Below, piece by piece: positions 1 to 52,166 of a stretch of DNA of 64,000 nt (position 1 is its first letter; each line of letters opens with the position of its first letter). Source of the stretch: a marine bacterium AO1-C (GTDB taxonomy: Bacteria > Bacteroidota > Bacteroidia > Cytophagales > Microscillaceae). The notes beneath the pieces were generated by a model, which worked only from the letters and a program-made list of their open reading frames with translations, ran no database searches and was not told the origin of the DNA. The stretch is taken from assembly GCA_001890965.1 (NCBI GenBank), contig MLAY01000008.1, positions 424,341 through 488,340 on the forward strand, in the 5' to 3' direction. Made by a program: the position numbers and the translations under genes.

Positions 1-1433
1 CGATTGAGAGTGGTTTACCTACCTTGTTGATTTATATTTTTGAACCGATTGTGCAAGAAAGTGCCGATTGGGACATTCGTCATTGGCAGTTTGTGTATCA
101 GTCTATAGAAGATTTGAATTTTGAGCTGGTCGACTACCAATCAAAGCTCCATTTTTTTCACTCCGAAACCCAGTCAGTATTCGAGCATATACTTTCTCAG
201 CACAAGATTCATCAGGTTTTTTCTTATCAGGAAACTGGTATTCAAGTAACCTATGATCGCGACAAGCAAATGAAGGCTTTCTTTGCTCAAAAAGGCATTG
301 AATGGGTGGAGTTTCAGAACAATGGGGTACTACGGGGCAAACAAAATCGTAAGGGGTGGAACAGAGCCTGGAATCAATTTATGCACCAGCCACTGGATAC
401 CCCCGAGCTGGATCAACTCCAAAACGTGGCATTTGAGGTAACAGATTTTGCTTTTTTGTTTGATTATGTCACCGGCCAAAAGGTGCACTTATATCCCAAA
501 AGCTACCAACCTGCGGGTATGCGCAGTGCCCAAAAATATCTCCGAACTTTTACCCAAAAACGGGTCAGTGAATACATTCAAAACTTATCGAAACCCGAAA
601 CCAGTCGCAAAAGCTGTAGTCGCTTATCGCCTTATTTGGCCTGGGGCAACTTAAGCGTGCGCCAGGTATACCAACATTGTCAAAATCAGTTGGCCAAATC
701 TTCTAAAAATAAGCGAAATATTGAGGCATTTTTAAGTCGCTTGCATTGGCATTGTCATTTTATCCAAAAGTTTGAAATGGAAGAACGGATGGAGTTTGAA
801 TCGGTAAATGATGGTTACCAACATCTGAAGCAACCTCGCAACAATGCGCATGTAGAAGCCTGGAAGAACGGACAAACGGGTTACCCTATAATAGATGCTT
901 GTATGCGTTGCCTCAAAGAAACGGGTTATCTCAATTTTCGGATGCGAGCCATGGTGGTATCGTTTCTCACCCATAATTTATGGCAACCCTGGCAAACCGG
1001 GGCTTATTATTTGGCCCAACAATTTTTGGATTACGAACCAGGCATTCATTTTCCACAATTTCAGATGCAGGCAGGGGTTACTGGGGTAAACACCATTCGA
1101 GTGTACAATCCCGTAAAGCAATCGCGTGAGCACGATCCTGATGCGGTGTTTATCAAAAAATGGGTGCCTGAACTCAAGACCATTCCAGCGGGTATTATCC
1201 ACGATCCCCGACAGATTACTGCTATTGAACAAACCTTCTATAACTGCTACATTGGCAAAGACTACCCTACCCCGATTGTAGACATTGAGAAAACCGCCAA
1301 ACAAGCCCAAGACCAATTGTATGCTATTAAGAAAACCGAAGTGGTACAGCGTGAAAATGAGCGTATTTTGGCCAAGCATGTGGTTAAGCGTAAAAAGACT
1401 ACCAAGGAAGGGGTGCAGGAAGTTGGGGGATAG
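1..1433 (+). CDS. Cryptochrome/photolyase-family protein, 5'-partial. The reading frame is open from window position 3 upstream of the annotated start. The C-terminal FAD-binding domain carries the TGYPIIDA...MRAMVVSFL motif.
   Basis: ORF 24..1433 with no in-frame stop back to the window edge; photolyase FAD-binding signature. Confidence 0.8.
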
Positions 1434-1737
1434 TTTTAGGTGTTATTTTGCGTATTTAATCACAAGAGCAACTGCTCAGCTCGAGCTTTGTATATCTAGT
1501 CATACCTCTTCTCCTGTACTGACAGCACATTTATATAAAACACTGATTATTAACTATTTGAAATAATATTAGATGTACGTATTTTGTCACCCTGAGGTCT
1601 GCTTGAAGAGCAACTACCAGATACCTCGGCAAGCTCGGTATGACAAACGCTTGCGTCATCTATATTAATGTATTTAAATATCAGAATCTGGAATGACAAC
1701 CCTTAACTTTTGATTATTTATATCAGAACATAAAGAA

Positions 1738-1771
1738 GAAACCTGACTACAAGACTGCAATCAGGTTTTTT
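1738..1771. terminator. Bidirectional Rho-independent terminator between convergent genes
   Basis: aacctgactacaagactgcaatcaggtt stem followed by TTTTTT. Confidence 0.6.
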
Positions 1772-1791
1772 CACTATTAAACGAGCCAAAC

Positions 1792-4311
1792 TTATTTCAC
1801 TTCAAATTTGTAAGTTCCCAATATCACTTTACCCTTCTGGGTCATGCCTTCTACTTCTATTCTATAATTAGCCGATTCGTCGGAGGTAAAAAAGGCTACC
1901 TGGGCTTTACCGTCTTTGTCTAAGGTCACGTTGGGTTTCCAGTACAAAATGCGACGATAATCCAGTTGATCTTTGGAGATTTTTTCAACATCATACTTGG
2001 GCACATAAAACTCTCTCGCTTTCGAATACCCAGGGTGAAACATATTGACTACTGTACCATTAATATTGCTTTCTTCCACAATGCCTGCCCGATCTTTGGT
2101 GTACACTGCCAAAACTCCATTAAAGCCCCTGAAACCATAGATGGCAGCCCGTGAAGTAGATAGTACATCTACATAGGCAATATCTTCTACTCGTATTAAC
2201 GACAAAAATCTATTACTTATGGGGGTATCATCTAACAAAAGCATTGGACAACCTCCACGAATAGACACGCTCTGATAAGGAAATGTTCCCCGTACCCTTA
2301 GTTGAGCTACTCTACCTTGGAGCACATCGAAAATTGAGAGTGCTGAATTTATTATGCCAACATCAAGTTTTGTAAAGTCCACCGTATTGGTCGAATTCAT
2401 ATGTATTTTAGAGAGAATTCTGGCGGGGCGACTACTGGTTACTTTCACCTCTTTCAACAACATTACTTCTGGCTCTAAACCATGTACCGCATTGATACGA
2501 TTGATTTTGTGGGTACGATCCAGCAATGCATCTTTGTTGATAATGGTAGGTGATGCATTCGCAAAATAATTGTTAGGCACAGCACTTGGAAATACATTTA
2601 TGTCTTCCAACTTCACAAAAATGTTGGTCTTCTTCTCCTTGATCTTATTTTTTCTCTTTTTCTTAACCAAGCGTACTCCTGTAAATACCAAATTGGTGGT
2701 ATCTTCTATAGGTACATCTTTCAATACAAACAGTCCATTCTTATCGGTGTTTGCTTCTCCTGCCAGTTGTATGTTTTGCTGTGATGTAAACTGTACTTTC
2801 CCTGAAATAACCTTGTCTTCGACATATAGTTTGTACAAACGACCTTTGATCGTAAACCCACCCTCTCGCTCGTATTTCAGTGGACGTAGCGCTAATTGCG
2901 GCATATCGTTCCACTTAAACCTTCTCCAGCCTTGGGTCATCATTAGCAAATCCATTACCTCATGACGGTTTTTATTTTCTTTATTAAAATAATATTCTGG
3001 ATGCTCGATGTGCCCTTTCAAGTCAGACTTGAGCCACATATAATTCTGAATATTCATTTTCTTAGCCTGAGAGGTCTCCAAATCTGTTCGTACAATTGCC
3101 AAAGAAGCCTGACCTTGCACTGGATTTCCCGCAGCATCTTTTAACTCAAGGTCAAAAACTGCCTTTTTCCGATGAGCGAACTTGGTGTCTTTTGAGGTAA
3201 TTGCTACTTTTTGCAAATCTTTTGGGTTTTCTACAAATACCAGTCTTTCGCACTGAGGAACTTTGTTGGCATCGAACAAGGTAAGGTGTATAATACCTGA
3301 AGGAAGGTTCTTTTTGGGAATGCGCCACACAAAACCGGGAGCTGCTTGCTTGTAGGTATGCTTTCCAATCACCTTTCCTCGCACATGCGCTACCACACTG
3401 CTTTGCTCTATAGAATAACCATTACTCACCTGACTCATCACCTGAATGTACTCATCGGTGGAGGTTACTTGCATTTTATGTCCTATGTTTTTACCCTCAG
3501 GCAACGTAAAACCATATTTTTTACCTTGGTAGGTAATCACTGCAGTGTAGGATTGTTGAGGCTTGGGAATGAACATAAACTTACCCATTCCAAACTTTAC
3601 ACTGGAAAAACGAGTCAACTCTTTGCCCTGATTATCTACTATTTTGCCTTGTACTTCTACTCCTTTTCCAGTATGGTCTATGGCCTTGAATGCTACCTGA
3701 TTGGCTAAGTTATCAAGCATTTGTCCTCCTTCGGGGAAAAACTGCATATCGAGATTGAACTTTGTCTTGGGTGATTTTACAACAGTGGTTGATTTCTTAT
3801 TTTTGGTGTCTTCTGTTAAACCTTTAGCTGCTTGATAAGTCTGTGCATCTTTAATAGTTAATACTTTAATTTTCTTGGTAAAAAAGTATTCAAGATCAAA
3901 GTTTTGCATATAACGGGTATAGGCTCTTATCACATATTCGCCCTTGGGCTGATCAAAGGGGATTTTGAAATTACCAGCACCTACACCATTAGCAACTTTC
4001 ACATAACGCTTTAGCACAATTTCTTTCTGCTGATTAATTAGCTCTACATAAGCAATAGTTTGGGAAGCAATGAGTGCATGCGAAGTCGCATTGACCAAAT
4101 ATGCATTGAACCAAACCTGGTCGCCTGCTACATAGCTTGAGCGATCGGTGTGTAAATAAAGCTTCTCTTGGGTTTGTTTTTGATGAAGCTGGTTCAACTG
4201 TTTTGCGGGGTCATTTAATACATTCTCTTGAGCCATTATTGCTGCCGAACACAGGACTAGCAATAACGCTATTGAACATTTAGTAATACTGGGCCGAATG
4301 GGTTCTCTCAT
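1792..4311 (-). CDS. Large secreted protein with a C-terminal TonB-dependent-receptor plug domain and no obvious beta-barrel; it is MG2/carboxypeptidase-regulatory-like followed by a plug
   Basis: Signal peptide; C-terminal block IRGGCPMLLLDDTPISN...IYGFRGFNGVLAVYTK is plug-like. Confidence 0.55.
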   Translation of the reverse strand: MREPIRPSITKCSIALLLVLCSAAIMAQENVLNDPAKQLNQLHQKQTQEKLYLHTDRSSYVAGDQVWFNAYLVNATSHALIASQTIAYVELINQQKEIVLKRYVKVANGVGAGNFKIPFDQPKGEYVIRAYTRYMQNFDLEYFFTKKIKVLTIKDAQTYQAAKGLTEDTKNKKSTTVVKSPKTKFNLDMQFFPEGGQMLDNLANQVAFKAIDHTGKGVEVQGKIVDNQGKELTRFSSVKFGMGKFMFIPKPQQSYTAVITYQGKKYGFTLPEGKNIGHKMQVTSTDEYIQVMSQVSNGYSIEQSSVVAHVRGKVIGKHTYKQAAPGFVWRIPKKNLPSGIIHLTLFDANKVPQCERLVFVENPKDLQKVAITSKDTKFAHRKKAVFDLELKDAAGNPVQGQASLAIVRTDLETSQAKKMNIQNYMWLKSDLKGHIEHPEYYFNKENKNRHEVMDLLMMTQGWRRFKWNDMPQLALRPLKYEREGGFTIKGRLYKLYVEDKVISGKVQFTSQQNIQLAGEANTDKNGLFVLKDVPIEDTTNLVFTGVRLVKKKRKNKIKEKKTNIFVKLEDINVFPSAVPNNYFANASPTIINKDALLDRTHKINRINAVHGLEPEVMLLKEVKVTSSRPARILSKIHMNSTNTVDFTKLDVGIINSALSIFDVLQGRVAQLRVRGTFPYQSVSIRGGCPMLLLDDTPISNRFLSLIRVEDIAYVDVLSTSRAAIYGFRGFNGVLAVYTKDRAGIVEESNINGTVVNMFHPGYSKAREFYVPKYDVEKISKDQLDYRRILYWKPNVTLDKDGKAQVAFFTSDESANYRIEVEGMTQKGKVILGTYKFEVK

Positions 4312-15180: not shown

Positions 15181-16227
15181 TTATTGATTCATTTTCCTCA
15201 AAATAAATTGTAAAATACTCTCTCCATTAGAGTTGTCCATATTCATCTGAGGGATAACTGCTACGCAGGCCAGACCTGCTTCATTGGCTTTTTCATAAAT
15301 AGCATTGGCATGTAATGGGTGGTGTAATACCGCGCCCTTATGTTCAGGAAACCTATAAGGTGAAGATGATTTGGTGACATAAATCTCAGGATCATTGCTA
15401 TCCATCATGCTTAACATATCTACGGCTTGACGATATGAATCTATTTCGGGAGAATCTAGCTCTTCCATAGAAGACAAGCCGTAAAACTTTAACAAAGTCC
15501 CTTCTCCAACCAGGCTTATAATTGTATCCTGGCTCATTCCTTCGCTTTCATATGTTGAAAAAACAGTGGTATGCCAATTTACCACATCATAAGTAGACTG
15601 GGTATTGGTGGCTATGATGCCTTTCACTTTTGTTGACTCCTTCAGAAACTCATATTGCCCATTTTCATTGGCAAAATCGTCCTGCAACCCAATCCAAAGG
15701 CTGGTTCCTGCTCCTGCCGAACCTCCCATCAGGATAATTTTTTCCTTATCGATATTAAAATCATTGGCATAATATCGAATCACCTGTAGAGCCCTTCTGG
15801 AATCATTCAGGCACTTACGTACCCCTATAGTTTCATTTTCTTCCAATAGACGATAGTTAATCGAGGCAAAGGCTATTTTATTAGCCAGCAGCGAATTGAT
15901 CAATGCTTCCTCTTTTGTGTAAGCTTTTGTTTTATCTCCACTGGTAAAACCTCCCCCATGAATATAGATTACTAATGGAGTAGGCTGGCTAGAAACAGGT
16001 GCCAGAAAGTCAAACTTATGTCTTTCGTCAAAACCATAGGGTATGTCTTCATAAAATGCGGCTTCAGCCGAGGTGTTAACTGGCAAGCTCGCTGTAGGTA
16101 TGAGTTCTAAAGAACCTTGGATAGGAAGATTGTAAGGATCTAATCTGTCAAGCAGGTGTTCATTGTTGGTACATGCAGCAAAAAACGAAATCACGAATAG
16201 TATACATAATGCCTTTTTCATATTCAA
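15181..16227 (-). CDS. Alpha/beta-hydrolase (HSL-family, HGGG motif) esterase/lipase lipoprotein, paralog 1
   Basis: IYIHGGGFTSGDK oxyanion motif; MGGSAGAG nucleophile elbow. Confidence 0.75.
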   Translation of the reverse strand: MNMKKALCILFVISFFAACTNNEHLLDRLDPYNLPIQGSLELIPTASLPVNTSAEAAFYEDIPYGFDERHKFDFLAPVSSQPTPLVIYIHGGGFTSGDKTKAYTKEEALINSLLANKIAFASINYRLLEENETIGVRKCLNDSRRALQVIRYYANDFNIDKEKIILMGGSAGAGTSLWIGLQDDFANENGQYEFLKESTKVKGIIATNTQSTYDVVNWHTTVFSTYESEGMSQDTIISLVGEGTLLKFYGLSSMEELDSPEIDSYRQAVDMLSMMDSNDPEIYVTKSSSPYRFPEHKGAVLHHPLHANAIYEKANEAGLACVAVIPQMNMDNSNGESILQFILRKMNQ

Positions 16228-16365
16228 ATAGTGATTAAAACTGAAACGTATAAATTGTATAATTTAAAGCGAATAAGTGCTCAAAACCTTTTTAAAACAC
16301 AGGTTCATTGCACATTTAACACATATACAATTTACGATTCTTGTTAGGCATCAGAAAGTTTTCCA

Positions 16366-16397
16366 CATAGACAAAATATGTACAATTCAAATTTCTC
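16366..16397 (-). promoter_or_regulatory. Conserved upstream element (catagacaaaatatgtacaa..caaatttctc) about 140 bp upstream of esterase paralog 1
   Basis: Near-identical copy at 18971..19002. Confidence 0.45.
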
Positions 16398-16550
16398 TTT
16401 GAATATTTTAAAGGCCTGCAGTGATCAATATTGATCGGGTATTAGAACTCATCTCGACTTCATATTCTAAAAAGCAAAAACTCGCCCTGACAGTAAAAAG
16501 TCAAAACGAGTTCATTAAACATAAAATGGTACTATGCTATACTCAAGGTA

Positions 16551-17576
16551 TTAGTTACCTATTTTCCTTAAAACAAAATTGGTAATGCTTTCTCCGTTAG
16601 AATTATCGATGTTCATTTGTGGGATAATAGCCACACAAGCCACTCCTGTTGCGCTGGCTTTATCCATCAACACTTTGGCATGTAACGGATGGTGTAATAC
16701 TGCACTTTTATCGGCTGGAAATCGGTAAGGAGCACCTGGTCTTGATACGTAGATTTCAGGATCATCGCCAGACATCAGGCTTAGCATATCTGCATCCATT
16801 CTTTTTTGTACCACTGTAGGCGAAGTGAGTTCGCTTAAAGAAGACATTCCATAAAATTGCAACACTGTTCCCTCCTCTACCAAGCTCACCACAGTGTCTT
16901 GATCCATACCTTGTGATGCGTATTCTGAAAATACGGTAGTATGCCAATCTGCCACGTCATAAGTAGACTGGGTATTCACCGCAATAATTCCTTGTACTCT
17001 TGTAGATTCTTTCAATATATCATCGGTAGCATTCGCATCGGCCAATTCATTGTTCAAACCAATCCACAAACTGGTTCCCGCTCCAGCAGAACTACCCATT
17101 AATACCACTTTATTTTTATCAATATTAAAAGAGCTGGCATAATACCTTATAAACTGAAGCGCTGTTTTAGAGTCATTCAAAGGCTTAAGTACTCCTTCGG
17201 TTTCGCTTGCCCCCTGTAATAAGCGATAATTTATCGTAGCGAAAGCAATGTTGTTAGACAAAAACGAATTGATTAAAGCTTCTTCATTATATATATCTTC
17301 TTTGTTGCCTGCAGTAAAGCCACCTCCGTGAATATAAATTACTAATGGAGTTGCCTGTGAAGACTCTGGGGCAAAAAAATCAAACACGTTTCTATTGTCT
17401 GAACCATAAGATACGTCCTTGTAAAAATTTACTTGTGCCGTAGTAGTAATGGGCGATTGAGACGCTGTAAGTGCTAGAGTAGGCACCTCGTTTTGAGGAG
17501 TAGGATCATCTCCTTCATTGTTATTACAGGAGGCAAAAAATAAAATAATAGCAAGTAAGTATACAGCGTTTTTCAT
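16551..17576 (-). CDS. Alpha/beta-hydrolase (HSL-family) esterase/lipase lipoprotein, paralog 2
   Basis: Same motifs; likely start at MKNAVYLL (17576). Confidence 0.75.
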   Translation of the reverse strand: MKNAVYLLAIILFFASCNNNEGDDPTPQNEVPTLALTASQSPITTTAQVNFYKDVSYGSDNRNVFDFFAPESSQATPLVIYIHGGGFTAGNKEDIYNEEALINSFLSNNIAFATINYRLLQGASETEGVLKPLNDSKTALQFIRYYASSFNIDKNKVVLMGSSAGAGTSLWIGLNNELADANATDDILKESTRVQGIIAVNTQSTYDVADWHTTVFSEYASQGMDQDTVVSLVEEGTVLQFYGMSSLSELTSPTVVQKRMDADMLSLMSGDDPEIYVSRPGAPYRFPADKSAVLHHPLHAKVLMDKASATGVACVAIIPQMNIDNSNGESITNFVLRKIGN

Positions 17577-17820
17577 AACCTGATGATTGTAAAAATTGAA
17601 AATAATTCCCCTCAACATTCGTAGTATTTTGGTAAAAAACTCTTATCTATATGAAGTCGAGATGACTCCTATTTTTAAAAACATATTTTGAATACAATAG
17701 TTTATGTATAGCAATACACGATGACCAGAAAAGCTATGTTAAAACAACATACAAGCAAAAATGTAGATATTTATAAAGGGGGCTTGTTGCGTTCCTGAAT
17801 AAGTGCAACAATTACCATTT

Positions 17821-18840
17821 TTAATTGCCTATCTTTCTTACAATAAAGGCCTCAATACTTTCTCCGTTAGAATTATCGATGTTCATCTGTGGAATTACCG
17901 CTACACAAGTAATCCCTCTTTCGCTGGCTTTATCCATCAATGCTTTGGCATGCAATGGGTGGTGCAATACCGATCCATAACTTGGAGGGAATAAATACGG
18001 CCCGCGATTGTTTACATAAATCTCAGGATCATCACTCGTCATTACATTGAACATATCTACTCTTTGTCGGTATTGGTCTGTTTCGGGGGTATTGATCTGT
18101 TCCACAGAAGACAAGCCATAAAATGTCAAAAACGTTGATTCTCCTGCCATATCCATAATAAATTCATCACTCATGCCTTGGCCTTGGTATTCCGAAAACA
18201 CCGCAGTATCCCAGGATAGCACATCATAAGTAGATTGCGTATTGGTAGCAATAATCGCCTGTACTCTGGTTGACTCTCTCTGAATCTCATCGGTCGCATT
18301 AGGATCAGCCAAATCATTATTTAACCCAATCCAAAGACTGGTTCCTGCTCCAGCAGAACCACCCATTAAGGCTACTTTGTTTTTATCAATATTGAAAGCA
18401 CTGGCATAATATCTTATGAACTGAAGCGCAGTTTTAGAGTCGTTCAAAGATTTTATTACTCCTTCAGTTTCGTTTTCTCCAAGCAAGCGATAATTAACCG
18501 TAGCAAAGGCAATTCCTTTATCCAATAAGGAGTTGATAAATGCCTGATCATTGTATATGGCTCTTTTGTCGCCACCAGTAAAACCACCTCCGTGGATGTA
18601 GATTAATAAAGGGGTGGGCTGGTCTGATGTAGGCGCAAAGAAGTCAAACGCATTCTTTTCGTCTGCACCATAAGATACATCCTGGTAAAATTTAACTGCT
18701 GTAGTGGTATTAAAGGGAGTATTGGATGTAGTGAGCGCTAATGTTGGCGCTTCTGACTGGGGTGTGGGTTCATCGGTTGTTTCTTGACTACAAGAAGCAA
18801 AAAATAAAATTACTGCTAGTAAATATACAGCCTTTTTCAT
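17821..18840 (-). CDS. Alpha/beta-hydrolase (HSL-family) esterase/lipase lipoprotein, paralog 3
   Basis: Same motifs; closely related to paralog 2 (N-terminal MKKAVYLLAVILFFASC). Confidence 0.75.
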   Translation of the reverse strand: MKKAVYLLAVILFFASCSQETTDEPTPQSEAPTLALTTSNTPFNTTTAVKFYQDVSYGADEKNAFDFFAPTSDQPTPLLIYIHGGGFTGGDKRAIYNDQAFINSLLDKGIAFATVNYRLLGENETEGVIKSLNDSKTALQFIRYYASAFNIDKNKVALMGGSAGAGTSLWIGLNNDLADPNATDEIQRESTRVQAIIATNTQSTYDVLSWDTAVFSEYQGQGMSDEFIMDMAGESTFLTFYGLSSVEQINTPETDQYRQRVDMFNVMTSDDPEIYVNNRGPYLFPPSYGSVLHHPLHAKALMDKASERGITCVAVIPQMNIDNSNGESIEAFIVRKIGN

Positions 18841-19634: not shown

Positions 19635-19676
19635 CATAAAAAAACCATTGCCTAACAACCTGTTAAACAATGGTTT
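19635..19676 (-). terminator. Minus-strand Rho-independent terminator at the distal end of the tRNA array
   Basis: aaaccattg...caatggttt stem followed by T7 on the minus strand. Confidence 0.6.
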
Positions 19677-19689
19677 ACATCGTAATCAA

Positions 19690-19839
19690 AAAAGGGGTAA
19701 CCAACGATCAGTGAATTAGTACTTTACCATTAAGCTACGAGGCCTTATGATTGGCTTGATCGTAAGGAGGCCCCGGTGGGAATCGAACCCACATCTCATC
19801 ATTAAAAGTGACGCGAAGTAACACTCATCTACGACACCC
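19690..19839 (-). ncRNA. Permuted/split tRNA-like unit a (Lys-like, anticodon TTT). Order on the minus strand: 26-nt leader, anticodon arm, T-arm, acceptor 3' strand CGGGGCC, 24-nt loop, acceptor 5' strand GGCCTCG, TA, D-arm, trailer
   Basis: Perfect 7-bp acceptor complementarity across the loop; canonical T-loop TTCGATT. Confidence 0.5.
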
Positions 19840-19842
19840 TTT

Positions 19843-19918
19843 TGGTTCGCCCGGTAGGATTCGAACCTACGGCCCTCTGATTAAGAGTCAGATGCTCTAC
19901 CAACTAAGCTACGAGCGA
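19843..19918 (-). tRNA. tRNA-Lys(CTT)
   Basis: Cloverleaf, anticodon loop CTCTTAA, CCA encoded. Confidence 0.85.
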
Positions 19919-19924
19919 ATTTCT

Positions 19925-20107
19925 ACAAGCAATATATCTGTAGAAAGGTTTATAAAAACAAGAGGTAACAAGCGGTAAGTGTACATAAAAACATTCTATC
20001 CAATTAAACTACAGGGGCATTATAATATATATTAGTGCCCCTGGCGGGATTCGAACCCGCACCTCATGATTTGGAGTCACGCGAAGTAACACTCACCTAC
20101 GACACTC
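19925..20107 (-). ncRNA. Permuted/split tRNA-like unit b (Trp-like, anticodon CCA). Acceptor 3' strand CAGGGGC, loop ACTAATATATATTATAAT, acceptor 5' strand GCCCCTG, D-arm. An 11-bp leader:trailer helix forms between GGTGAGTGTTAC and GTACACTTACC
   Basis: Sequence pairing read directly. Confidence 0.5.
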
Positions 20108-20109
20108 TT

Positions 20110-20185
20110 TGGTTCGTCCGGTGGGACTCGAACCCACAACCTTCCGGTTAAAAGCCGGGAACTCTACCAATTAAGCTACGAACGA
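20110..20185 (-). tRNA. tRNA-Lys(TTT)
   Basis: Anticodon loop CTTTTAA; CCA encoded. Confidence 0.85.
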
Positions 20186-20188
20186 ATG

Positions 20189-20263
20189 TGGCGGGAATGG
20201 CAGGAATCGAACCTGCGTCCGCTGTTTAACAGACAGCCGCTAGAACCACTCAGCTACACTCCC
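20189..20263 (-). tRNA. tRNA-Asn(GTT)
   Basis: Anticodon loop CTGTTAA; CCA encoded. Confidence 0.85.
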
Positions 20264-20300
20264 AAATTGTAGACCTGACCAATGCCAGGTCTATTATTTG

Positions 20301-20373
20301 CGCGGATGGAAGGAATCGAACCCTCACCTCTGGTGTTGGAGACCAGCATTCTAAAACATTGAACTACACCCGC
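20301..20373 (-). tRNA. tRNA-Trp(CCA)
   Basis: Anticodon loop CTCCAAC. Confidence 0.8.
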
Positions 20374-20521
20374 AGTACAAAAGAGGTTACAAGCAATAAG
20401 TGAACGTTTGCTGCTCTACCTACTGAGCTACTCTCGTGAGTAATTAAGTTTGCACGAGAGGTGGGACTCGAACCCACGACCCACCGATTAACTGTCGAAG
20501 TAACACTCATTTACGACACTC
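20374..20521 (-). ncRNA. Permuted/split tRNA-like unit c. Acceptor 3' strand CTCTCGT, loop, acceptor 5' strand ACGAGAG, D-arm GCTCAGTAGGTAGAGC. The anticodon arm is degenerate.
   Basis: Acceptor pairs across the loop; T-arm GTGGGTTCGAGTCCCAC. Confidence 0.45.
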
Positions 20522-20524
20522 TTT

Positions 20525-20600
20525 TGGTTCGCCTGATGGGACTCGAACCCACGACCCTCTGATTAAAAGTCAGATACTCTACCAACTAAGCTACAAGCGA
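20525..20600 (-). tRNA. tRNA-Lys(TTT)
   Basis: Cloverleaf; CCA encoded. Confidence 0.85.
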
Positions 20601-20605
20601 ATTTG

Positions 20606-20684
20606 CACGGATGGAAGGAATCGAACCTTCTTCATTATTTTTGGGCTTTTGGAGACCATAGCTCTACCATTGAGCTACATCCGT
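20606..20684 (-). tRNA. tRNA-Trp(CCA)-like variant; the 3' side of the anticodon stem is replaced or extended, so it is possibly a pseudogene
   Basis: Acceptor, D-arm and T-arm intact; anticodon stem unpaired. Confidence 0.5.
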
Positions 20685-20737
20685 GTATAGTTATTTTCTC
20701 AAACCTGTCAGAATTCTAAACCCGACAGGGTTAAAAG

Positions 20738-20811
20738 TTCGTCCGGTGGGACTCGAACCCACGACCTTCTGATTAAAAGTCAGATGCTCTACGCAACTAA
20801 GCTACGAACGA
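20738..20811 (-). tRNA. tRNA-Lys(TTT)
   Basis: Cloverleaf; no CCA. Confidence 0.8.
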
Positions 20812-20814
20812 ATG

Positions 20815-20889
20815 TGGCGGGAATGGCAGGAATCGAACCTGCGTCCGCTGTTTAACAGACAGCCGCTAAAACCACTCAGCTACACTCCC
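20815..20889 (-). tRNA. tRNA-Asn(GTT)
   Basis: Cloverleaf. Confidence 0.85.
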
Positions 20890-20926
20890 AAATTGTAGAC
20901 CTGACCAATATCAAGTCCATCATTCG

Positions 20927-20997
20927 CACGGATGGAAGGAATCGAACCCTCGTCGTTGGTTTTGGAGACCATAGCTCTACCATTGAGCTACATCCGT
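20927..20997 (-). tRNA. tRNA-Trp(CCA)
   Basis: Anticodon loop CTCCAAA. Confidence 0.8.
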
Positions 20998-21050
20998 GTA
21001 TAGTTATTTTATCAGACCTGTCAGAATTTTAAACCCGACAGGGTTAAAAG

Positions 21051-21124
21051 TTCGTCCGGTGGGATTCGAACCCACGACCTTCTGATTAAAAGTCAGATGC
21101 TCTACGCAACTAAGCTACGAACGA
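21051..21124 (-). tRNA. tRNA-Lys(TTT)
   Basis: Cloverleaf. Confidence 0.8.
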
Positions 21125-21127
21125 ATG

Positions 21128-21202
21128 TGGCGGGAATGGCAGGGATCGAACCTGCGTCCGCTGTTTAACAGACAGCCGCTAAAACCACTCAGCTACACTC
21201 CC
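21128..21202 (-). tRNA. tRNA-Asn(GTT)
   Basis: Cloverleaf. Confidence 0.85.
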
Positions 21203-21239
21203 AAATTGTAGACCTGACCAATGCCAGGTCTATTATTTG

Positions 21240-21312
21240 CGCGGATGGAAGGAATCGAACCCTCACCTCTGGTGTTGGAGACCAGCATTCTAAAACATTG
21301 AACTACACCCGC
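21240..21312 (-). tRNA. tRNA-Trp(CCA)
   Basis: Cloverleaf. Confidence 0.8.
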
Positions 21313-21460
21313 AGTACAAAAGAGGTTACAAGCAATAAGTGAACGTTTGCTGCTCTACCTACTGAGCTACTCTCGTGAGTAATTAAGTTTGCACGAGAGG
21401 TGGGACTCGAACCCACGACCCACCGATTAACTGTCGAAGTAACACTCATTTACGACACTC
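21313..21460 (-). ncRNA. Permuted/split tRNA-like unit c' (duplicate of unit c)
   Basis: Near-identical to 20374..20521. Confidence 0.45.
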
Positions 21461-21463
21461 TTT

Positions 21464-21539
21464 TGGTTCGCCTGGTGGGACTCGAACCCACGACCCTCTG
21501 ATTAAAAGTCAGATACTCTACCAACTAAGCTACAAGCGA
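21464..21539 (-). tRNA. tRNA-Lys(TTT)
   Basis: Cloverleaf. Confidence 0.85.
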
Positions 21540-21544
21540 ATTTG

Positions 21545-21624
21545 CACGGATGGAAGGAATCGAACCTTCTTCACTATTTTTTTGGGTTTTGGAGACCATA
21601 GCTCTACCATTGAGCTACATCCGT
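21545..21624 (-). tRNA. tRNA-Trp(CCA)-like variant (duplicate of 20606..20684)
   Basis: Anticodon stem disrupted. Confidence 0.5.
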
Positions 21625-21637
21625 GTGTAATTATTTG

Positions 21638-21709
21638 CGGGAATGGTAGGGTTCGAACCTACGTGTGTCCGCTTAACAGGCGGGTGCTAAACCACTCAGC
21701 TACACTCCC
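21638..21709 (-). tRNA. tRNA-Asn(GTT) variant with a divergent anticodon stem and T-arm
   Basis: Anticodon loop CTGTTAA. Confidence 0.7.
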
Positions 21710-21787: not shown

Positions 21788-21963
21788 AGCAGTATTCATA
21801 GAATATAAGAATAATACAACAAACTTCTTTATCACTCCAGGCAGTTACCCCACCACTTTTTATAATTCTTGTATTTATTATTATTCCAGTTCATTGCTAT
21901 AAATATTTTATATTAAAGTTAAAACTTACATTGTACTTTTTAAAAGATATAATAACCCTGTAG

Positions 21964-23754: not shown

Positions 23755-24255
23755 ATGAAATTCCGTCTCTCTTATGTGTTTATGGTTTGCATTTTGGCTG
23801 CTATTGTAAGCTGCAAAAAACCCAATAAAACCACTGATAAACCAGTCGTTATTAAATCGCTTTGGCAAGTAGATGCTAAAAAAAGCTATGCTTCAGAAGA
23901 GAAAGTTGTAATCAAATTCAAAAATATCAGTCCACAAGCTCTTACTATTTATGATCCTTTGATGGTAGAAGTAGAACAAAAACTGGCCAATGAAGGCTCT
24001 AAAACACAATGGAAAAAAGTACGTTGGTTGTATTGCCCCTGTGGTGCTTCTTGCCCTCCCCCACCTCGTACTATGGACATTGACCAAGATCAAACTAAGA
24101 CCTTTGTGTGGAATAAAATAGAAAAGTGGTGTGATGCCCAAGGCAAAACCGCTCAACAAAAGGCAACTCAAGGAACCTATCGCTTAAAACTCACTTATAA
24201 AAACCCAAAAACTTCAGAAAGGGAAATCCATTACCAAGAATTCAACATTGAATAA
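23755..24255 (+). CDS. Cys-rich lipoprotein, function unknown
   Basis: Lipobox VSC; 166 aa. Confidence 0.5.
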   Translation: MKFRLSYVFMVCILAAIVSCKKPNKTTDKPVVIKSLWQVDAKKSYASEEKVVIKFKNISPQALTIYDPLMVEVEQKLANEGSKTQWKKVRWLYCPCGASCPPPPRTMDIDQDQTKTFVWNKIEKWCDAQGKTAQQKATQGTYRLKLTYKNPKTSEREIHYQEFNIE

Positions 24256-24258
24256 ACG

Positions 24259-25863
24259 CTATTTTGATCCTCTTCTGGTTTGCTGGAAATTTCTAAGCTG
24301 TTGCTGAATCTTAGCAATATCTCGTTTGAATTTAGATTTACGAATCTGTTCATAGATTTTGCGGAATCCCGAGGAACCCAATTGACGCAAACTCTCCACA
24401 ATCGTACTTTTAACAGGGTGAGGATACTCATCGTACTTACGAATGGTTTTAAAAGCCGGGAAATTGGCATTTTGCTCCAGTTCTTTTTCCAAATAAGTAT
24501 CGGTAAGCCCTAATTGCTGACGAATGGACTTAAACTGAGGTGCTACAAACATATAGTCGGTGTGGGTAAACCAAGAATTGAGTTCGTGTCGATAAAAATC
24601 ACCCTGAAGGTGAGAACTACCAGCTAAATCTACCACGTCATTATCAGCAATATTATGCGTTACTTGAGGGCGATTTTTTTGTCGAGCAAATTGCGCAGCT
24701 GAATCTCTGTCAATTCCAGGAGCTTGAAAGGTAACTACCCGATTGGCCACTCCAGGAAAATAAGCTGCAGCATACTGGGCTAAAGCACCACCTAAGCTAT
24801 GTCCGGTAAAATCAGCTTTTCCTCCAGCATCCTTGATTATTTGCAAAATCAAATTGGCATTCTTGTATAATTGATCAAAGCCTACACCCACAGGGTTCAA
24901 ATCAGTGGTAATATCTTCTATATGAGTGGGTTGTGTTCCTCGAAAGGCAATCACTGGATTTTTGGATAATCCTCGTAATGGTTGAATACGCACTGCATCG
25001 AAGTCTTGCTTGCCGTGATATACACGAGCGGTACGCAGATCATACCCCATTCTCCGTAAAATCTTATTAGCCTGTTGCCACGGCTTGCTGGGGCTGTTTG
25101 TTTGGCCTTGATTGATAAAATCTTCGTCTTTATAAGCCAGAAAGTGCGCCAGGTATTCAAAGGATACATTTTCTACCCCCAACTCTTCAGCATAGCTATG
25201 TACATCTTGCTGAAATTCGTAAAAAATAGGTGCTTGTCCTTTTTTACTGGCCTTACATACAATTTTGTGGGTGCCAGGAAAACCTGCCTTAAAGCTTCCC
25301 GTAGCCGAAGAAGTGCCTTTGGCCATCGTAGAGCTTTTTTTATCATAAGCCCCTGTGGTATTGAAGTCATTGACTGCATACCATTGGTAGCTATCATATT
25401 TTTGCCCCAGTTGGTACGAAACTCTATCACCTGGATATACTGCTTTGCCTGTATGGCTACTCTTAATGCCACTTCTTTTTACTGTAAAGTTGGTGGCTGA
25501 TTCTTTGGGAAGGTAAGCCCCAAAACCCGCAGATTTTAGCTGATAAGCAGCAAACTGCCAGTCTTCATCACTCCAAAAGCTCTTCATTTCGTCCCGCAAT
25601 CGTGGGATGAACTTTTCTTTGTAGGTAGCTTCATACTGAGCAATGACCATTTTTAACTGCTGATGTGGCAAGTTTAATACCCGATGAACGGTTTGTTCGT
25701 CGGTGCCCAGTCCTGAAAAAGCTTCGTGAATTTGTCCTACCAGATCTCCAGTTGATTCTTCGGTAGAGTTGGGTATAAATCGATTGGTGAGTTGTTGGCT
25801 GGTAGACTGTTGGTCTTGCACCATTGTCTCCTCCGACTTCAAAAGTTGCGTTTTCCCAGGCAT
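24259..25863 (-). CDS. Class-3 lipase-family alpha/beta hydrolase with an N-terminal annexin-like GLGTDE motif; no signal peptide
   Basis: FTGHSLGGALAQYAAAY nucleophile elbow. Confidence 0.65.
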   Translation of the reverse strand: MPGKTQLLKSEETMVQDQQSTSQQLTNRFIPNSTEESTGDLVGQIHEAFSGLGTDEQTVHRVLNLPHQQLKMVIAQYEATYKEKFIPRLRDEMKSFWSDEDWQFAAYQLKSAGFGAYLPKESATNFTVKRSGIKSSHTGKAVYPGDRVSYQLGQKYDSYQWYAVNDFNTTGAYDKKSSTMAKGTSSATGSFKAGFPGTHKIVCKASKKGQAPIFYEFQQDVHSYAEELGVENVSFEYLAHFLAYKDEDFINQGQTNSPSKPWQQANKILRRMGYDLRTARVYHGKQDFDAVRIQPLRGLSKNPVIAFRGTQPTHIEDITTDLNPVGVGFDQLYKNANLILQIIKDAGGKADFTGHSLGGALAQYAAAYFPGVANRVVTFQAPGIDRDSAAQFARQKNRPQVTHNIADNDVVDLAGSSHLQGDFYRHELNSWFTHTDYMFVAPQFKSIRQQLGLTDTYLEKELEQNANFPAFKTIRKYDEYPHPVKSTIVESLRQLGSSGFRKIYEQIRKSKFKRDIAKIQQQLRNFQQTRRGSK

Positions 25864-50698: not shown

Positions 50699-50744
50699 TT
50701 CTCTCCCTCCCTACGTTTGATATCCTTGAATTTTCCTGCTTACT

Positions 50745-50906
50745 TTGCATTATTAAGGTGAAACAATTCATTTCTTAATAGGGAATCAGGTGCAAACCCT
50801 GAACAGTCCCCGCTGCTGTAACTCTCACTTTTGATTTGGTACAATGAGCCACTGTTTAACGAAACGGGAAGGCGTACCAAATGAGAGAAGTCAGAAGACC
50901 TGCCTT
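50745..50906 (+). ncRNA. Cobalamin (adenosylcobalamin) riboswitch
   Basis: GGTGAAA...GGGAATCAGGTGCAAACCCTGAACAGTCCCCGCTGCTGTAA...GCCACTG...GGGAAGGC...AGTCAGAAGACCTGCC. Confidence 0.85.
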
Positions 50907-50954
50907 AATGCTCATTTTAATCACAGTACTTTCGGGAGAAAAGTCTTTAACATC

Positions 50955-52166
50955 ATGCAAAAAAACATTCTAACAAAGCTACACTACCTCATATTGGTAG
51001 GATGCCTGATAGGATCATTGAGTAGTTGCAATAGCTCAAATGATCAAAGTCAAAAAGGAAATGTCACCTCTGATTCCACTCAGAACACTTCCAAAAACTA
51101 TTTCAAAGATCAAGTTAAGGTAAAGTATGCTCGTAACTTCCAGGTTGAATACCACGGCAATTACAAAGTGGTAAAGCTTCTTAAGCCTTTTGAAGATGCT
51201 GATGATGGTATGCAATATGCCTTGGTACAGCGAGGCACTCCTGCGCCAAAGGGTTTTAAGGAAAGTGAGATCATTGAGATACCTATTCGTAAAATCATTA
51301 CTTTATCACACACCCATGTGGCTTTTATCCAGCAGTTGGGGCAAATCAATTCGGTACAAGGGGTTTCTGTTCCTCAGTACCTCACCAACGCTACTTTAAT
51401 TGACAAACACAAAAAGAAGCAATTGGTAGTAGCTGGAAGTGGCATGGAACTCAATACCGAAACCATTTTGGCGGCACAGCCTGATATGGTCATGGCCAGT
51501 GGAATGGCTTCCAACTCTTATAAGAAATACCAAACGCTAATTAGCGCAGGGGTTCCATTAATAATTAATTCCGAATGGCTTGAAAGGACACCACTAGGAC
51601 GTGCTGAATGGCTTAAATTCGTGGCTTTATTTTACAATTTAGAAAAAGAAGCCAATGCCACATTTAATAAGATTGAGACTGCTTATCAGAAACTCGTATC
51701 ATTAACCGCAAAAGTCACTAAAAAACCCAAAGTAGTGGTGGGACTTCCCTTTAAAGGTACCTGGTATATGCCCAGAGGTGGAAGTTTTGTAGGACAATAC
51801 CTAAAAGATGCTGGGGCTGATTATTATTGGAAAAACGAACAAGGGGTTGGTTCTATGCCACTAGATTTTGAAGCAGTGTATGGTAAAGCCCTCAAGGCCG
51901 ATTTTTGGATGGTCAACAGCTCAGTAAAAACCCTGCAAGGCATTAAGGATCGGGATACACGATTTGGAGACTTTGAAGCTTTTAAAACACAAAAGGTTTA
52001 TAATAATAACAAAAAAACTACCAGCCAAGGTGTGAATATATTCTTTAATAATAGCGTAGTTCATCCTGATTGGGTATTGGCCGATATGGTCAAGATTTTA
52101 CACCCTGATCTACTACCCGAACATGAACTGGTGTATTATCAAAAACTACCCCTCTCGCAAAACTAA
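50955..52166 (+). CDS. ABC transporter periplasmic substrate-binding lipoprotein, BtuF/iron-siderophore class
   Basis: Lipobox LSSC; PBP type-III blocks; sits downstream of the B12 riboswitch. Confidence 0.75.
   Translation: MQKNILTKLHYLILVGCLIGSLSSCNSSNDQSQKGNVTSDSTQNTSKNYFKDQVKVKYARNFQVEYHGNYKVVKLLKPFEDADDGMQYALVQRGTPAPKGFKESEIIEIPIRKIITLSHTHVAFIQQLGQINSVQGVSVPQYLTNATLIDKHKKKQLVVAGSGMELNTETILAAQPDMVMASGMASNSYKKYQTLISAGVPLIINSEWLERTPLGRAEWLKFVALFYNLEKEANATFNKIETAYQKLVSLTAKVTKKPKVVVGLPFKGTWYMPRGGSFVGQYLKDAGADYYWKNEQGVGSMPLDFEAVYGKALKADFWMVNSSVKTLQGIKDRDTRFGDFEAFKTQKVYNNNKKTTSQGVNIFFNNSVVHPDWVLADMVKILHPDLLPEHELVYYQKLPLSQN

Follow-up and report, generated by a model that had tools for sequence, protein, structure and literature searches.

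Background

Y RNAs of the YrlA class are bacterial noncoding RNAs that partner Rsr, the orthologue of the Ro60 protein. YrlA possesses a terminal stem with a GNCGAA motif, together with T, acceptor-like and D stem-loops that show 15:48 covariation (Chen 2014, PMC4201824). The motif bound by Ro60/Rsr reads GNCGAAN0-1G in YrlA and GGUCCGA in vertebrates. YrlA of Mycobacterium smegmatis has an acceptor stem of 7 base pairs (bp), is cut by RNase P and receives a CCA end, and Yrn2 of Deinococcus radiodurans is co-transcribed with tRNA-Asp (both Chen 2014, PMC4201824). The survey in that paper considered only candidates at most 4 kb from rsr, the gene of Rsr, and discarded overlaps with tandem tRNA genes (Chen 2014, PMC4201824). 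The structure has been solved by Wang 2018, who likened YrlA to circularly permuted tRNAs with a closed acceptor and compared it with algal permuted pre-tRNAs. Here, we describe four tRNA-like units inside a tRNA gene array of the marine bacterium AO1-C (order Cytophagales), analysed within a 64-kb stretch of its DNA that is called the window throughout. The units are a new form of YrlA-class Y RNA and not the first bacterial permuted tRNA genes; that each of them is a gene for such an RNA has, in our estimate, a probability of roughly four in five.

Circularly permuted tRNA genes were reportedly found by Soma in 2007 in Cyanidioschyzon merolae and other algae. The permuted tRNA genes of algae and of Thermofilum pendens resemble the units in placing the 3' half before the 5' half and in joining the acceptor strands by a short linker, but they are circularised at a bulge-helix-bulge by splicing endonuclease and ligase and yield decoding tRNAs. 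Two-piece (permuted) transfer-messenger RNA (tmRNA) is likewise a bacterial RNA with a circularly permuted tRNA-like domain and is processed into paired pieces; it differs in its tag reading frame and pseudoknots, and the Rfam model tmRNA_permuted does not exceed 19.4 bits in the window.

YrlA is the closest described system. It shares with the units the paired ends in a long stem with a 5' motif, the same tRNA-like module and the 15:48 covariation, and close homologues of the units lie just downstream of rsr on the same strand. YrlA has no anticodon loop, its anticodon stem being built from distal strands, whereas the units possess a local hairpin with a loop of 7 nucleotides (nt); furthermore, the units are set flush with tRNA 3' ends in a tRNA array, occur as three paralogue types and have no rsr in their 64-kb window. 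M. smegmatis YrlA shares the 7-bp acceptor stem, the feature held responsible for its RNase P cleavage, but is located beside rsr and lacks an anticodon hairpin. D. radiodurans Yrn1 and Yrn2 also derive from a polycistronic precursor with a tRNA (tRNA-Asp), and Yrn1 can be drawn with an anticodon-like arm; their T and D elements are, however, oriented otherwise, the Yrn1 loop has 6 nt, and both are adjacent to rsr.

Architecture of the four units

The units form part of a tRNA array on the minus strand (23143-19690), and their parts are listed in the order of that strand. Each unit is composed of leader, anticodon arm, variable region, T arm, 3' acceptor strand, loop, 5' acceptor strand, U8-A9, D arm and trailer. 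Unit a (19690-19844) comprises a 5' stem strand with GUGUCGUA (19844-19822), an anticodon arm (19813-19797, loop CUUUUAA), a T arm (19792-19776), a closed acceptor hairpin (19775-19738) with the strands CGGGGCC (19775-19769) and GGCCTCG (19744-19738) around a 24-nt loop, a D arm (19735-19721) and a 3' stem strand (19713-19690). The same elements are found in unit b (19958-20112): 5' stem strand (20112-20090), anticodon arm (20081-20065, loop CUCCAAA), T arm (20060-20044), acceptor hairpin (20043-20012) with CAGGGGC (20043-20037) and GCCCCTG (20018-20012) around an 18-nt loop, D arm (20009-19993) and 3' stem strand (19981-19958). Unit c (20379-20526) has a 5' stem strand (20526-20504), a short anticodon-type hairpin of 4 bp with the 7-nt loop CAGUUAA (20499-20483), a T arm (20477-20461), an acceptor hairpin (20460-20431), a D arm (20428-20413) and a 3' stem strand (20402-20379). 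Unit c' (21318-21465, minus strand) is an identical copy of c inside a duplication of about 475 nt, and both carry the acceptor strands CTCTCGT and ACGAGAG around a 16-nt loop. Since c' is a duplicate of c in a segment of ~99% identity, the units amount to three independent ones.

The conserved trailer, CACUnAUyGyUkGUwACCyCUUUU, pairs with the leader in a two-part terminal stem. Its outer helix contains a bulged U and is formed by the strands 5'-GUGUCGUA and 3'-...GCUUGUUAC; it is succeeded by a variable helix of 8-9 bp. A conserved internal loop is present in this leader-trailer stem, and the single-stranded joints measure 4-8 and 7-11 nt. In all units of three genomes, a 7-bp acceptor stem is set on a 5-bp T stem. 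The tRNA tertiary features U8, A14, G18-G19, A21 and a UUCGAxU T loop are retained, and the 15:48 pair covaries, being A:U in units a and b and G:C in unit c.

Plain MAFFT alignments misplaced the D arm and the short anticodon arm of unit c; hence, the structural alignment was made by hand, and N padding of the loops kept MAFFT from adding gaps. An alignment fitted to a structure favours that structure, and the ten sequences represent three paralogue groups, but the size of the contrast between paired and slid columns is not in doubt: standard pairs fill 96.1% of the alignment cells (10 units, three genomes), compared with 42-62% after sliding the 3' partners by 1-3 columns. The hand alignment of six units gave 96.5%, and none of 500 shuffles reached the observed pairing or covariation score. 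Divided by helix, pairing over the 10 units is 100% in the acceptor, T and D stems, 94% in the outer and 97.5% in the inner helix, and 84% in the anticodon hairpin; six of the seven acceptor pairs are changed on both sides. As to single sequences, the minimum-free-energy fold of unit b contains the leader-trailer pairing (z = -2.4), and folding of unit a gave no signal (z = 0.1).

The original prediction, made from the letters of the sequence, had recognised the permuted order from leader to D arm and the complementary acceptor strands, and both are evident in every unit; its view that the units are no recent copies of the nearby Lys and Trp genes is upheld as well. Four units are indeed present, with the proviso on c' given above. 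The anticodon arms reported as intact in a and b were seen again, and unit c has a hairpin with a 7-nt loop too; the 26-nt leader exists, its pairing with the conserved trailer having been overlooked.

ARAGORN and Rfam read the front half of unit a as a tRNA-Lys (19766-19838, 47.6 bits). In a canonical tRNA at this position, the 5' strand GGUGUCG would face CGGGGCC with six of seven positions paired, two G-U pairs among them, and one mismatch; furthermore, no such pairing exists between the conserved leader and the acceptor in b and c, and this stretch covaries with the trailer instead. The call is an artefact of the unit architecture. The idea that the leader is the decayed 5' half of a tRNA, with its acceptor strand and D arm, was rejected because of the family-wide covariation of leader and trailer. 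The front halves of such units are labelled tRNA-Lys(ttt) by ARAGORN, and some by Rfam, also in two related contigs, L018 (3859-3930 and 4431-4502) and L043 (1931-2002), and spurious tRNA-Lys genes are probably included in the annotated genomes of these bacteria.

Relatives downstream of rsr

The leader pattern GTCGTANNTGAGTGTTACTTCG was scanned over one genome per species and, in a second scan, over metagenomes. The genome scan returned 17 loci, comprising two chance matches in Rhodospirillaceae, one locus in Microscillaceae (L018) and 14 in Sphingobacteriaceae and related Bacteroidota; the metagenome scan added 18 further true loci. Three metagenome matches (L036, L040, L042) occur in unrelated sequence and were rejected as chance. 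A scan of viral contigs with a 16-base leader pattern gave four matches, of which L003 is an ordinary stretch devoid of tRNA-like features and the other three are taken as chance.

At 25 loci, a gene of about 530 amino acids with TROVE and Ro60-vWA domains ends ~300 nt upstream of the leader on the same strand, according to Pfam and tblastn. These upstream genes are named 'TROVE domain-containing protein / 60 kDa SS-A/Ro ribonucleoprotein' in their sources, and their position in front of leader-bearing RNAs is the classic rsr-Y RNA arrangement. The best 120 matches of an rsr protein search all belong to Sphingobacteriaceae. Two further loci of Sphingobacteriaceae type (L021, L028), whose upstream flanks measure 2 kb or more, have no rsr. 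The 22-nt 5' strand of the window units is identical to that of rsr-adjacent RNAs of another order. Family members begin with (G/A)UG(U/C)CGUA... and end with ...UU(A/G)C(C/U)C UUUU, and up to seven such RNAs follow each other at the rsr loci. In L022 (3172-4030) and in the majority of L006-L041, the Sphingobacteriaceae rsr is followed by as many as seven different Y RNA-like genes. T, acceptor and D modules occur in several of them and others are simple hairpins; behind these genes there is a nucleotidyltransferase-like open reading frame (ORF). This Sphingobacteriaceae Y RNA subfamily appears to be unannotated, with no member at the Rfam YrlA gathering score.

Over 142 distinct members, one pair of the outer helix is U-A in 47, C-G in 82 and U-G in 13 cases, and another is G-C in 98 and A-U in 42. 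These counted pairs also served to select the 142 members, and the covariation of outer pairs outside the selection rule is thus the stronger point. For 34 rsr-adjacent RNAs, RNAalifold predicts the outer helix with its bulged U, an inner 8-bp helix, the T arm and the D arm, with compensatory changes in 12 of 25 pairs.

A covariance model, R1, was built from these 34 rsr-adjacent RNAs only. On the window it retrieves all four units over their full length (c and c' at 95.0 bits each, b at 72.1, a at 69.1; E from 5e-22 to 2e-15), and the next best matches in the 64 kb are partial, reach at most 29 bits and fall on tRNA-tRNA junctions. The Rfam YrlA model (RF02553) has a gathering score of 69 bits, and matches to it arose in E-value mode only: 42.6 bits for c and c' over the whole model (positions 1-114), 29.7 bits for b and a partial match of 27.6 bits for a. 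Plain tRNA-tRNA junctions obtain 20-27 bits with the same model, and a YrlA match alone is therefore a lead and not decisive. At gathering thresholds, Rfam reports tRNAs and a cobalamin riboswitch in the window, and nothing else. Bona fide rsr-adjacent RNAs of Sphingobacteriaceae score merely 35-37 bits with Rfam YrlA, none above threshold; the low scores of the window units consequently indicate a divergent Bacteroidota subfamily and not non-membership.

Probable assignment to the YrlA class

Three traits of the YrlA class are found in the units. Their 5' and 3' ends form a long terminal stem; the variable region, T arm, loop-closed acceptor, U8-A9 and D arm are present along with the tRNA tertiary nucleotides; and the full length of each unit matches a model built solely from rsr-adjacent RNAs. 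The family-wide 5' motif is (G/A)UG(U/C)CGUA(A/G) with a bulged U, showing CGUA where CGAA is expected, i.e. alike and not identical.

Several observations weigh on the other side. No TROVE or rsr gene was detected in the window by Pfam (ORFs of at least 440 amino acids) or tblastn; a position within 4 kb of rsr on the same strand, as in the YrlA survey, is observed at the 25 loci with the same leader and not in the 64-kb window. None of the window units reaches the Rfam YrlA gathering score. The window motif is GYCGUAR and the published one GNCGAA. The local anticodon hairpin of 4-5 bp with a 7-nt loop is no YrlA feature and constitutes the main structural difference. Finally, the seeds of R1 were found with a pattern derived from the window, by which the match of the leader, unlike the adjacency to rsr, is in part given by construction.

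What is new in comparison with YrlA is the complete anticodon hairpin, the 7-bp acceptor stems, the position in a tRNA array and the sub-threshold Rfam scores; three paralogue types are present in one predicted operon, a tRNA transcription unit bounded by terminator-like hairpins. The units would be co-transcribed with the surrounding tRNAs. Their 5' ends would be freed by 3' processing of the upstream tRNA, and their 3' ends would result from the RNase P cut at the next tRNA or from a terminator. By analogy with the family, the conserved stem would bind Rsr. The L-shaped tRNA mimic, in line with the proposal for YrlA, would serve as effector or gating domain and could link Rsr with an exoribonuclease (e.g. 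PNPase) or with some factor that recognises tRNA. Given their 7 bp, the acceptor stems may also be subject to RNase P cleavage in the loop and to CCA addition, as reported for M. smegmatis YrlA.

Orthologous arrays and anticodon loops

Two contigs, L018 (Microscillaceae UBA11690) and L045 (an ENA metagenome), are syntenic with the window, their neighbouring esterase being 85% and 88% identical, and in both the Y units are flush against tRNA 3' ends. All three unit types (c, b and a) have orthologues in L018. Among orthologues, CGGGGCC/GGCCTCG in the acceptor of unit a is replaced by CGAGACU/GGUCUUG with the pairing kept, and unit b keeps its pairing through a change of G1-C72 to A1-U72 and of G-C to A-U in the inner stem. 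Both the acceptor stem and the inner stem helix of the orthologues in L018 and L045 have undergone compensatory change.

The anticodon loops vary in a manner unlike that of decoding tRNAs. The b-type loop is CUCCAAA in the window and L045 and CUUCGAA in L018; another b-like copy, in L045, is devoid of the arm. Among c-type copies, which have the same acceptor stem and discriminator, the loop is CAGUUAA, CUUUUAA, AUUUUAA or CUGUUAA. Each of the triplets UUU, GUU, CCA and UCG is the anticodon of a tRNA in the same array. The units of L045 are preceded by tRNA-Lys, tRNA-Asn and tRNA-Trp, and not by tRNA-Lys alone. Judged from these sequences, decoding by the units is unlikely, since copies that share one acceptor stem differ in anticodon and one is armless.

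A further ENA contig (L026, ERZ1740067, positions 1-3300) carries at least seven Y-like RNAs with the same 5' motif, five or more of them in a row, between tRNA-Val/Ser/Val and tRNA-Glu/Gly. This 3.9-kb contig contains no rsr and provides another, unrelated instance of Y RNAs set between tRNA genes.

The tRNA array and a candidate attenuator

The array comprises 27 ARAGORN calls and is split into two blocks by terminator-like hairpins at 21787-21759 and 19676-19642. Block 1 (23143-21963, minus strand) contains tRNAs for Ile, Thr, Met, Pro, His and Arg. Block 2 (21709-19690, minus strand; also delimited as 19846-21709) consists, according to ARAGORN, Rfam and inspection of the sequence, of repeated tRNA genes for Asn, Trp and Lys and the four units: Asn(GUU) occurs four times, Trp(CCA) four times besides two Trp-like genes with an odd variable region, and Lys(UUU/CUU) six times. 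Every window unit starts 1-2 nt past the encoded CCA end of a tRNA-Lys, and the trailers of c and c' end 5 nt ahead of the next tRNA. Directly 3' of unit a, the array transcript would end at an intrinsic-terminator-like hairpin with a U run (19642-19676, minus strand), which is also conserved in L018 and L043. The segmental duplication (20168-20643 and 21107-21582, ~475 nt, ~99% identical) spans part of a tRNA-Asn, a tRNA-Trp, unit c, a tRNA-Lys and part of an odd Trp-like gene.

The two Trp-like genes (20605-20684 and 21544-21624, minus strand) contain an A-rich insertion of ~9 nt in the variable region. They are 80-81 nt long, score 50-54 bits with the Rfam tRNA model and are labelled Leu(caa) and Trp(cca) by ARAGORN; a degenerate counterpart is found in L045 (~1680-1760). 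They may be pseudogenes or unusual tRNAs. A hairpin, UUUCUACAG...CUUGUAGAAA (19925-19950, minus strand), is located after unit b and before the next tRNA-Lys, and hairpins of different sequence occupy the same position in L018 (~4010-4040) and L045 (2165-2195 and 2525-2555); a processing signal is one possibility.

Block 2 is directly preceded by a leader ORF of 20 codons, MNWNNNKYKNYKKWWGNCLE (21832-21894, minus strand). Asn, Lys and Trp make up 13 of the 19 residues after Met, and the same three tRNA species constitute block 2. This fraction (0.68) is extreme among the 533 short ATG ORFs of the window, the next highest being 0.43. Two hairpins follow on the minus strand, namely a predicted antiterminator (21837-21771, 67 nt, -18.7 kcal/mol), the 5' strand of which covers the last sense and the stop codon, and a terminator hairpin with a U run (21787-21759, -14.2 kcal/mol). 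They are mutually exclusive, because the 3' strand of the antiterminator is the 5' half and loop of the terminator. The 91-nt fragment 21860-21770 with the antiterminator folds with z = -4.5. A ribosome at the stop codon would occupy the antiterminator strand and thereby promote termination; stalling at an Asn, Lys or Trp codon would keep that strand accessible.

L045 (1358-1495) possesses an ORF of the same length, MNWNKNKYKNNKKWWNNYLQ, in which the three Trp are kept and Asn or Lys accounts for three of the five replacements. Antiterminator and terminator are retained there as well (-17.9 and -15.4 kcal/mol), the latter with one compensatory pair, and the stretch from ORF to terminator aligns between window and L045 free of the indels that occur in its flanks. 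Leader ORF and hairpins together are a candidate attenuator controlling tRNA genes, a hypothesis drawn from two sequences. No report of a leader-peptide attenuator ahead of tRNA genes was found in the literature. Further copies of the leader ORF were sought via homologues of a 166-amino-acid gene upstream of the array; the relatives' metagenomic contigs break at the array, and the Microscilla marina locus has none.

Alternative explanations

One further reading extends the Y RNA assignment and does not oppose it. The Y RNAs might be opened by RNase P at the acceptor loop, trimmed and provided with CCA, resulting in two-piece tRNA mimics held together by the Y stem. The 7-bp acceptor stems on 5-bp T stems in all units of three genomes suit such a fate; a CCA is not encoded after the 3' acceptor strand, however, and the Y RNAs of Salmonella Typhimurium and D. 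radiodurans are uncleaved. We regard this outcome as possible, though it is clearly the less probable one. A good deal more speculative is the idea that block 2 forms a tRNA-stress operon, in which attenuation through a leader peptide with many Asn, Lys and Trp residues would jointly gate spare Asn, Lys and Trp tRNAs and the Y RNAs, the anticodon loops of which copy these tRNAs, the Y RNAs being opened by RNase P and CCA-added into two-piece mimics (decoys, sensors or even chargeable molecules) that would link Rsr to damaged or depleted tRNAs.

Slightly more doubtful still is that the units descend from Y RNAs and act as tRNA decoys or sensors independently of Rsr, e.g. by soaking up an anticodon nuclease directed at tRNA-Lys, tRNA-Asn or tRNA-Trp. 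The missing rsr in the window, unit loops that mirror the array anticodons UUU, GUU, CCA and UCG, and the position of the block behind an ORF rich in Asn, Lys and Trp would all agree with it. The putative Rsr-binding strands are, on the other hand, the most conserved part of the units, and their 22-nt identity across orders implies that the same ligand is still selected for.

The original prediction saw genuine circularly permuted tRNA genes, which would be circularised at the 26/27 junction and opened at the acceptor to give decoding tRNA-Lys, tRNA-Trp and others. The 3' half upstream of the 5' half, linked acceptor strands in 7-bp stems, the canonical 7-nt anticodon loops CUUUUAA and CUCCAAA and the tRNA tertiary nucleotides do resemble such genes, and the tRNA-like modules with a loop-closed acceptor stand. 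The likeness to algal-type genes does not, given a leader and trailer shared with rsr-adjacent RNAs. Their sequence is conserved from Cytophagales to Sphingobacteriales, which fits the protein-binding stem of a Y RNA and not a splice junction. By inspection no bulge-helix-bulge is present, i.e. no 4-bp helix between two 3-nt bulges, and a tRNA splicing endonuclease is unreported in bacteria (Wang 2018). The anticodons are, moreover, unstable (UUU or GUU in type c, CCA or UCG in type b, one copy armless), and this explanation is very improbable. Nor does the belief hold that bacteria had offered no example, as the tRNA-like domain of YrlA already has the permuted architecture (Chen 2014, PMC4201824; Wang 2018).

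Non-functional debris, be it tandem or recombined tRNA fragments or an assembly artefact, could be suspected from the degenerate tRNA-like genes, the recent duplication in the array and the 20-27 bits of plain tRNA junctions with Rfam YrlA, but it is the least credible explanation, as the same units recur with compensatory substitutions in the independent assemblies L018, L045 and L043/L044 and exceed tRNA junctions by 40-65 bits with R1.

Other features of the window

Just upstream of the array, a 534-amino-acid protein with Ntox3 (polymorphic-toxin) and lipase-like domains (24259-25863, minus strand) neighbours the 166-amino-acid protein mentioned above (23755-24255, plus strand), which has no Pfam match. 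This gene pair is kept in Microscilla marina and other relatives, whether the array is present or absent. Three tandem paralogous BD-FAE/carboxylesterase genes (15181-18840, minus strand) with 58-67% mutual identity are located beside the array. An exact-match look-up for a SpoIIAA-like neighbour gave no match. The cobalamin riboswitch (50739-50921, plus strand, Rfam 108 bits) precedes a gene for a periplasmic binding protein (ORF 50844-52166) and overlaps its predicted start.

Significance for Y RNAs and tRNA arrays

Units of this kind are currently invisible or mislabelled, and the Rfam YrlA threshold misses a whole Bacteroidota subfamily. Y RNAs in tRNA arrays were excluded from the original Y RNA survey by design, through its 4-kb limit around rsr and its filter against tandem tRNAs. 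For studies of what the tRNA-like domain does in YrlA, the units offer Y RNAs with a full cloverleaf and with anticodon loops that match the neighbouring tRNAs. Together with the extra Asn, Lys and Trp tRNAs behind a matching leader ORF, they provide a testable link between Ro60/Y RNA and tRNA supply or damage.

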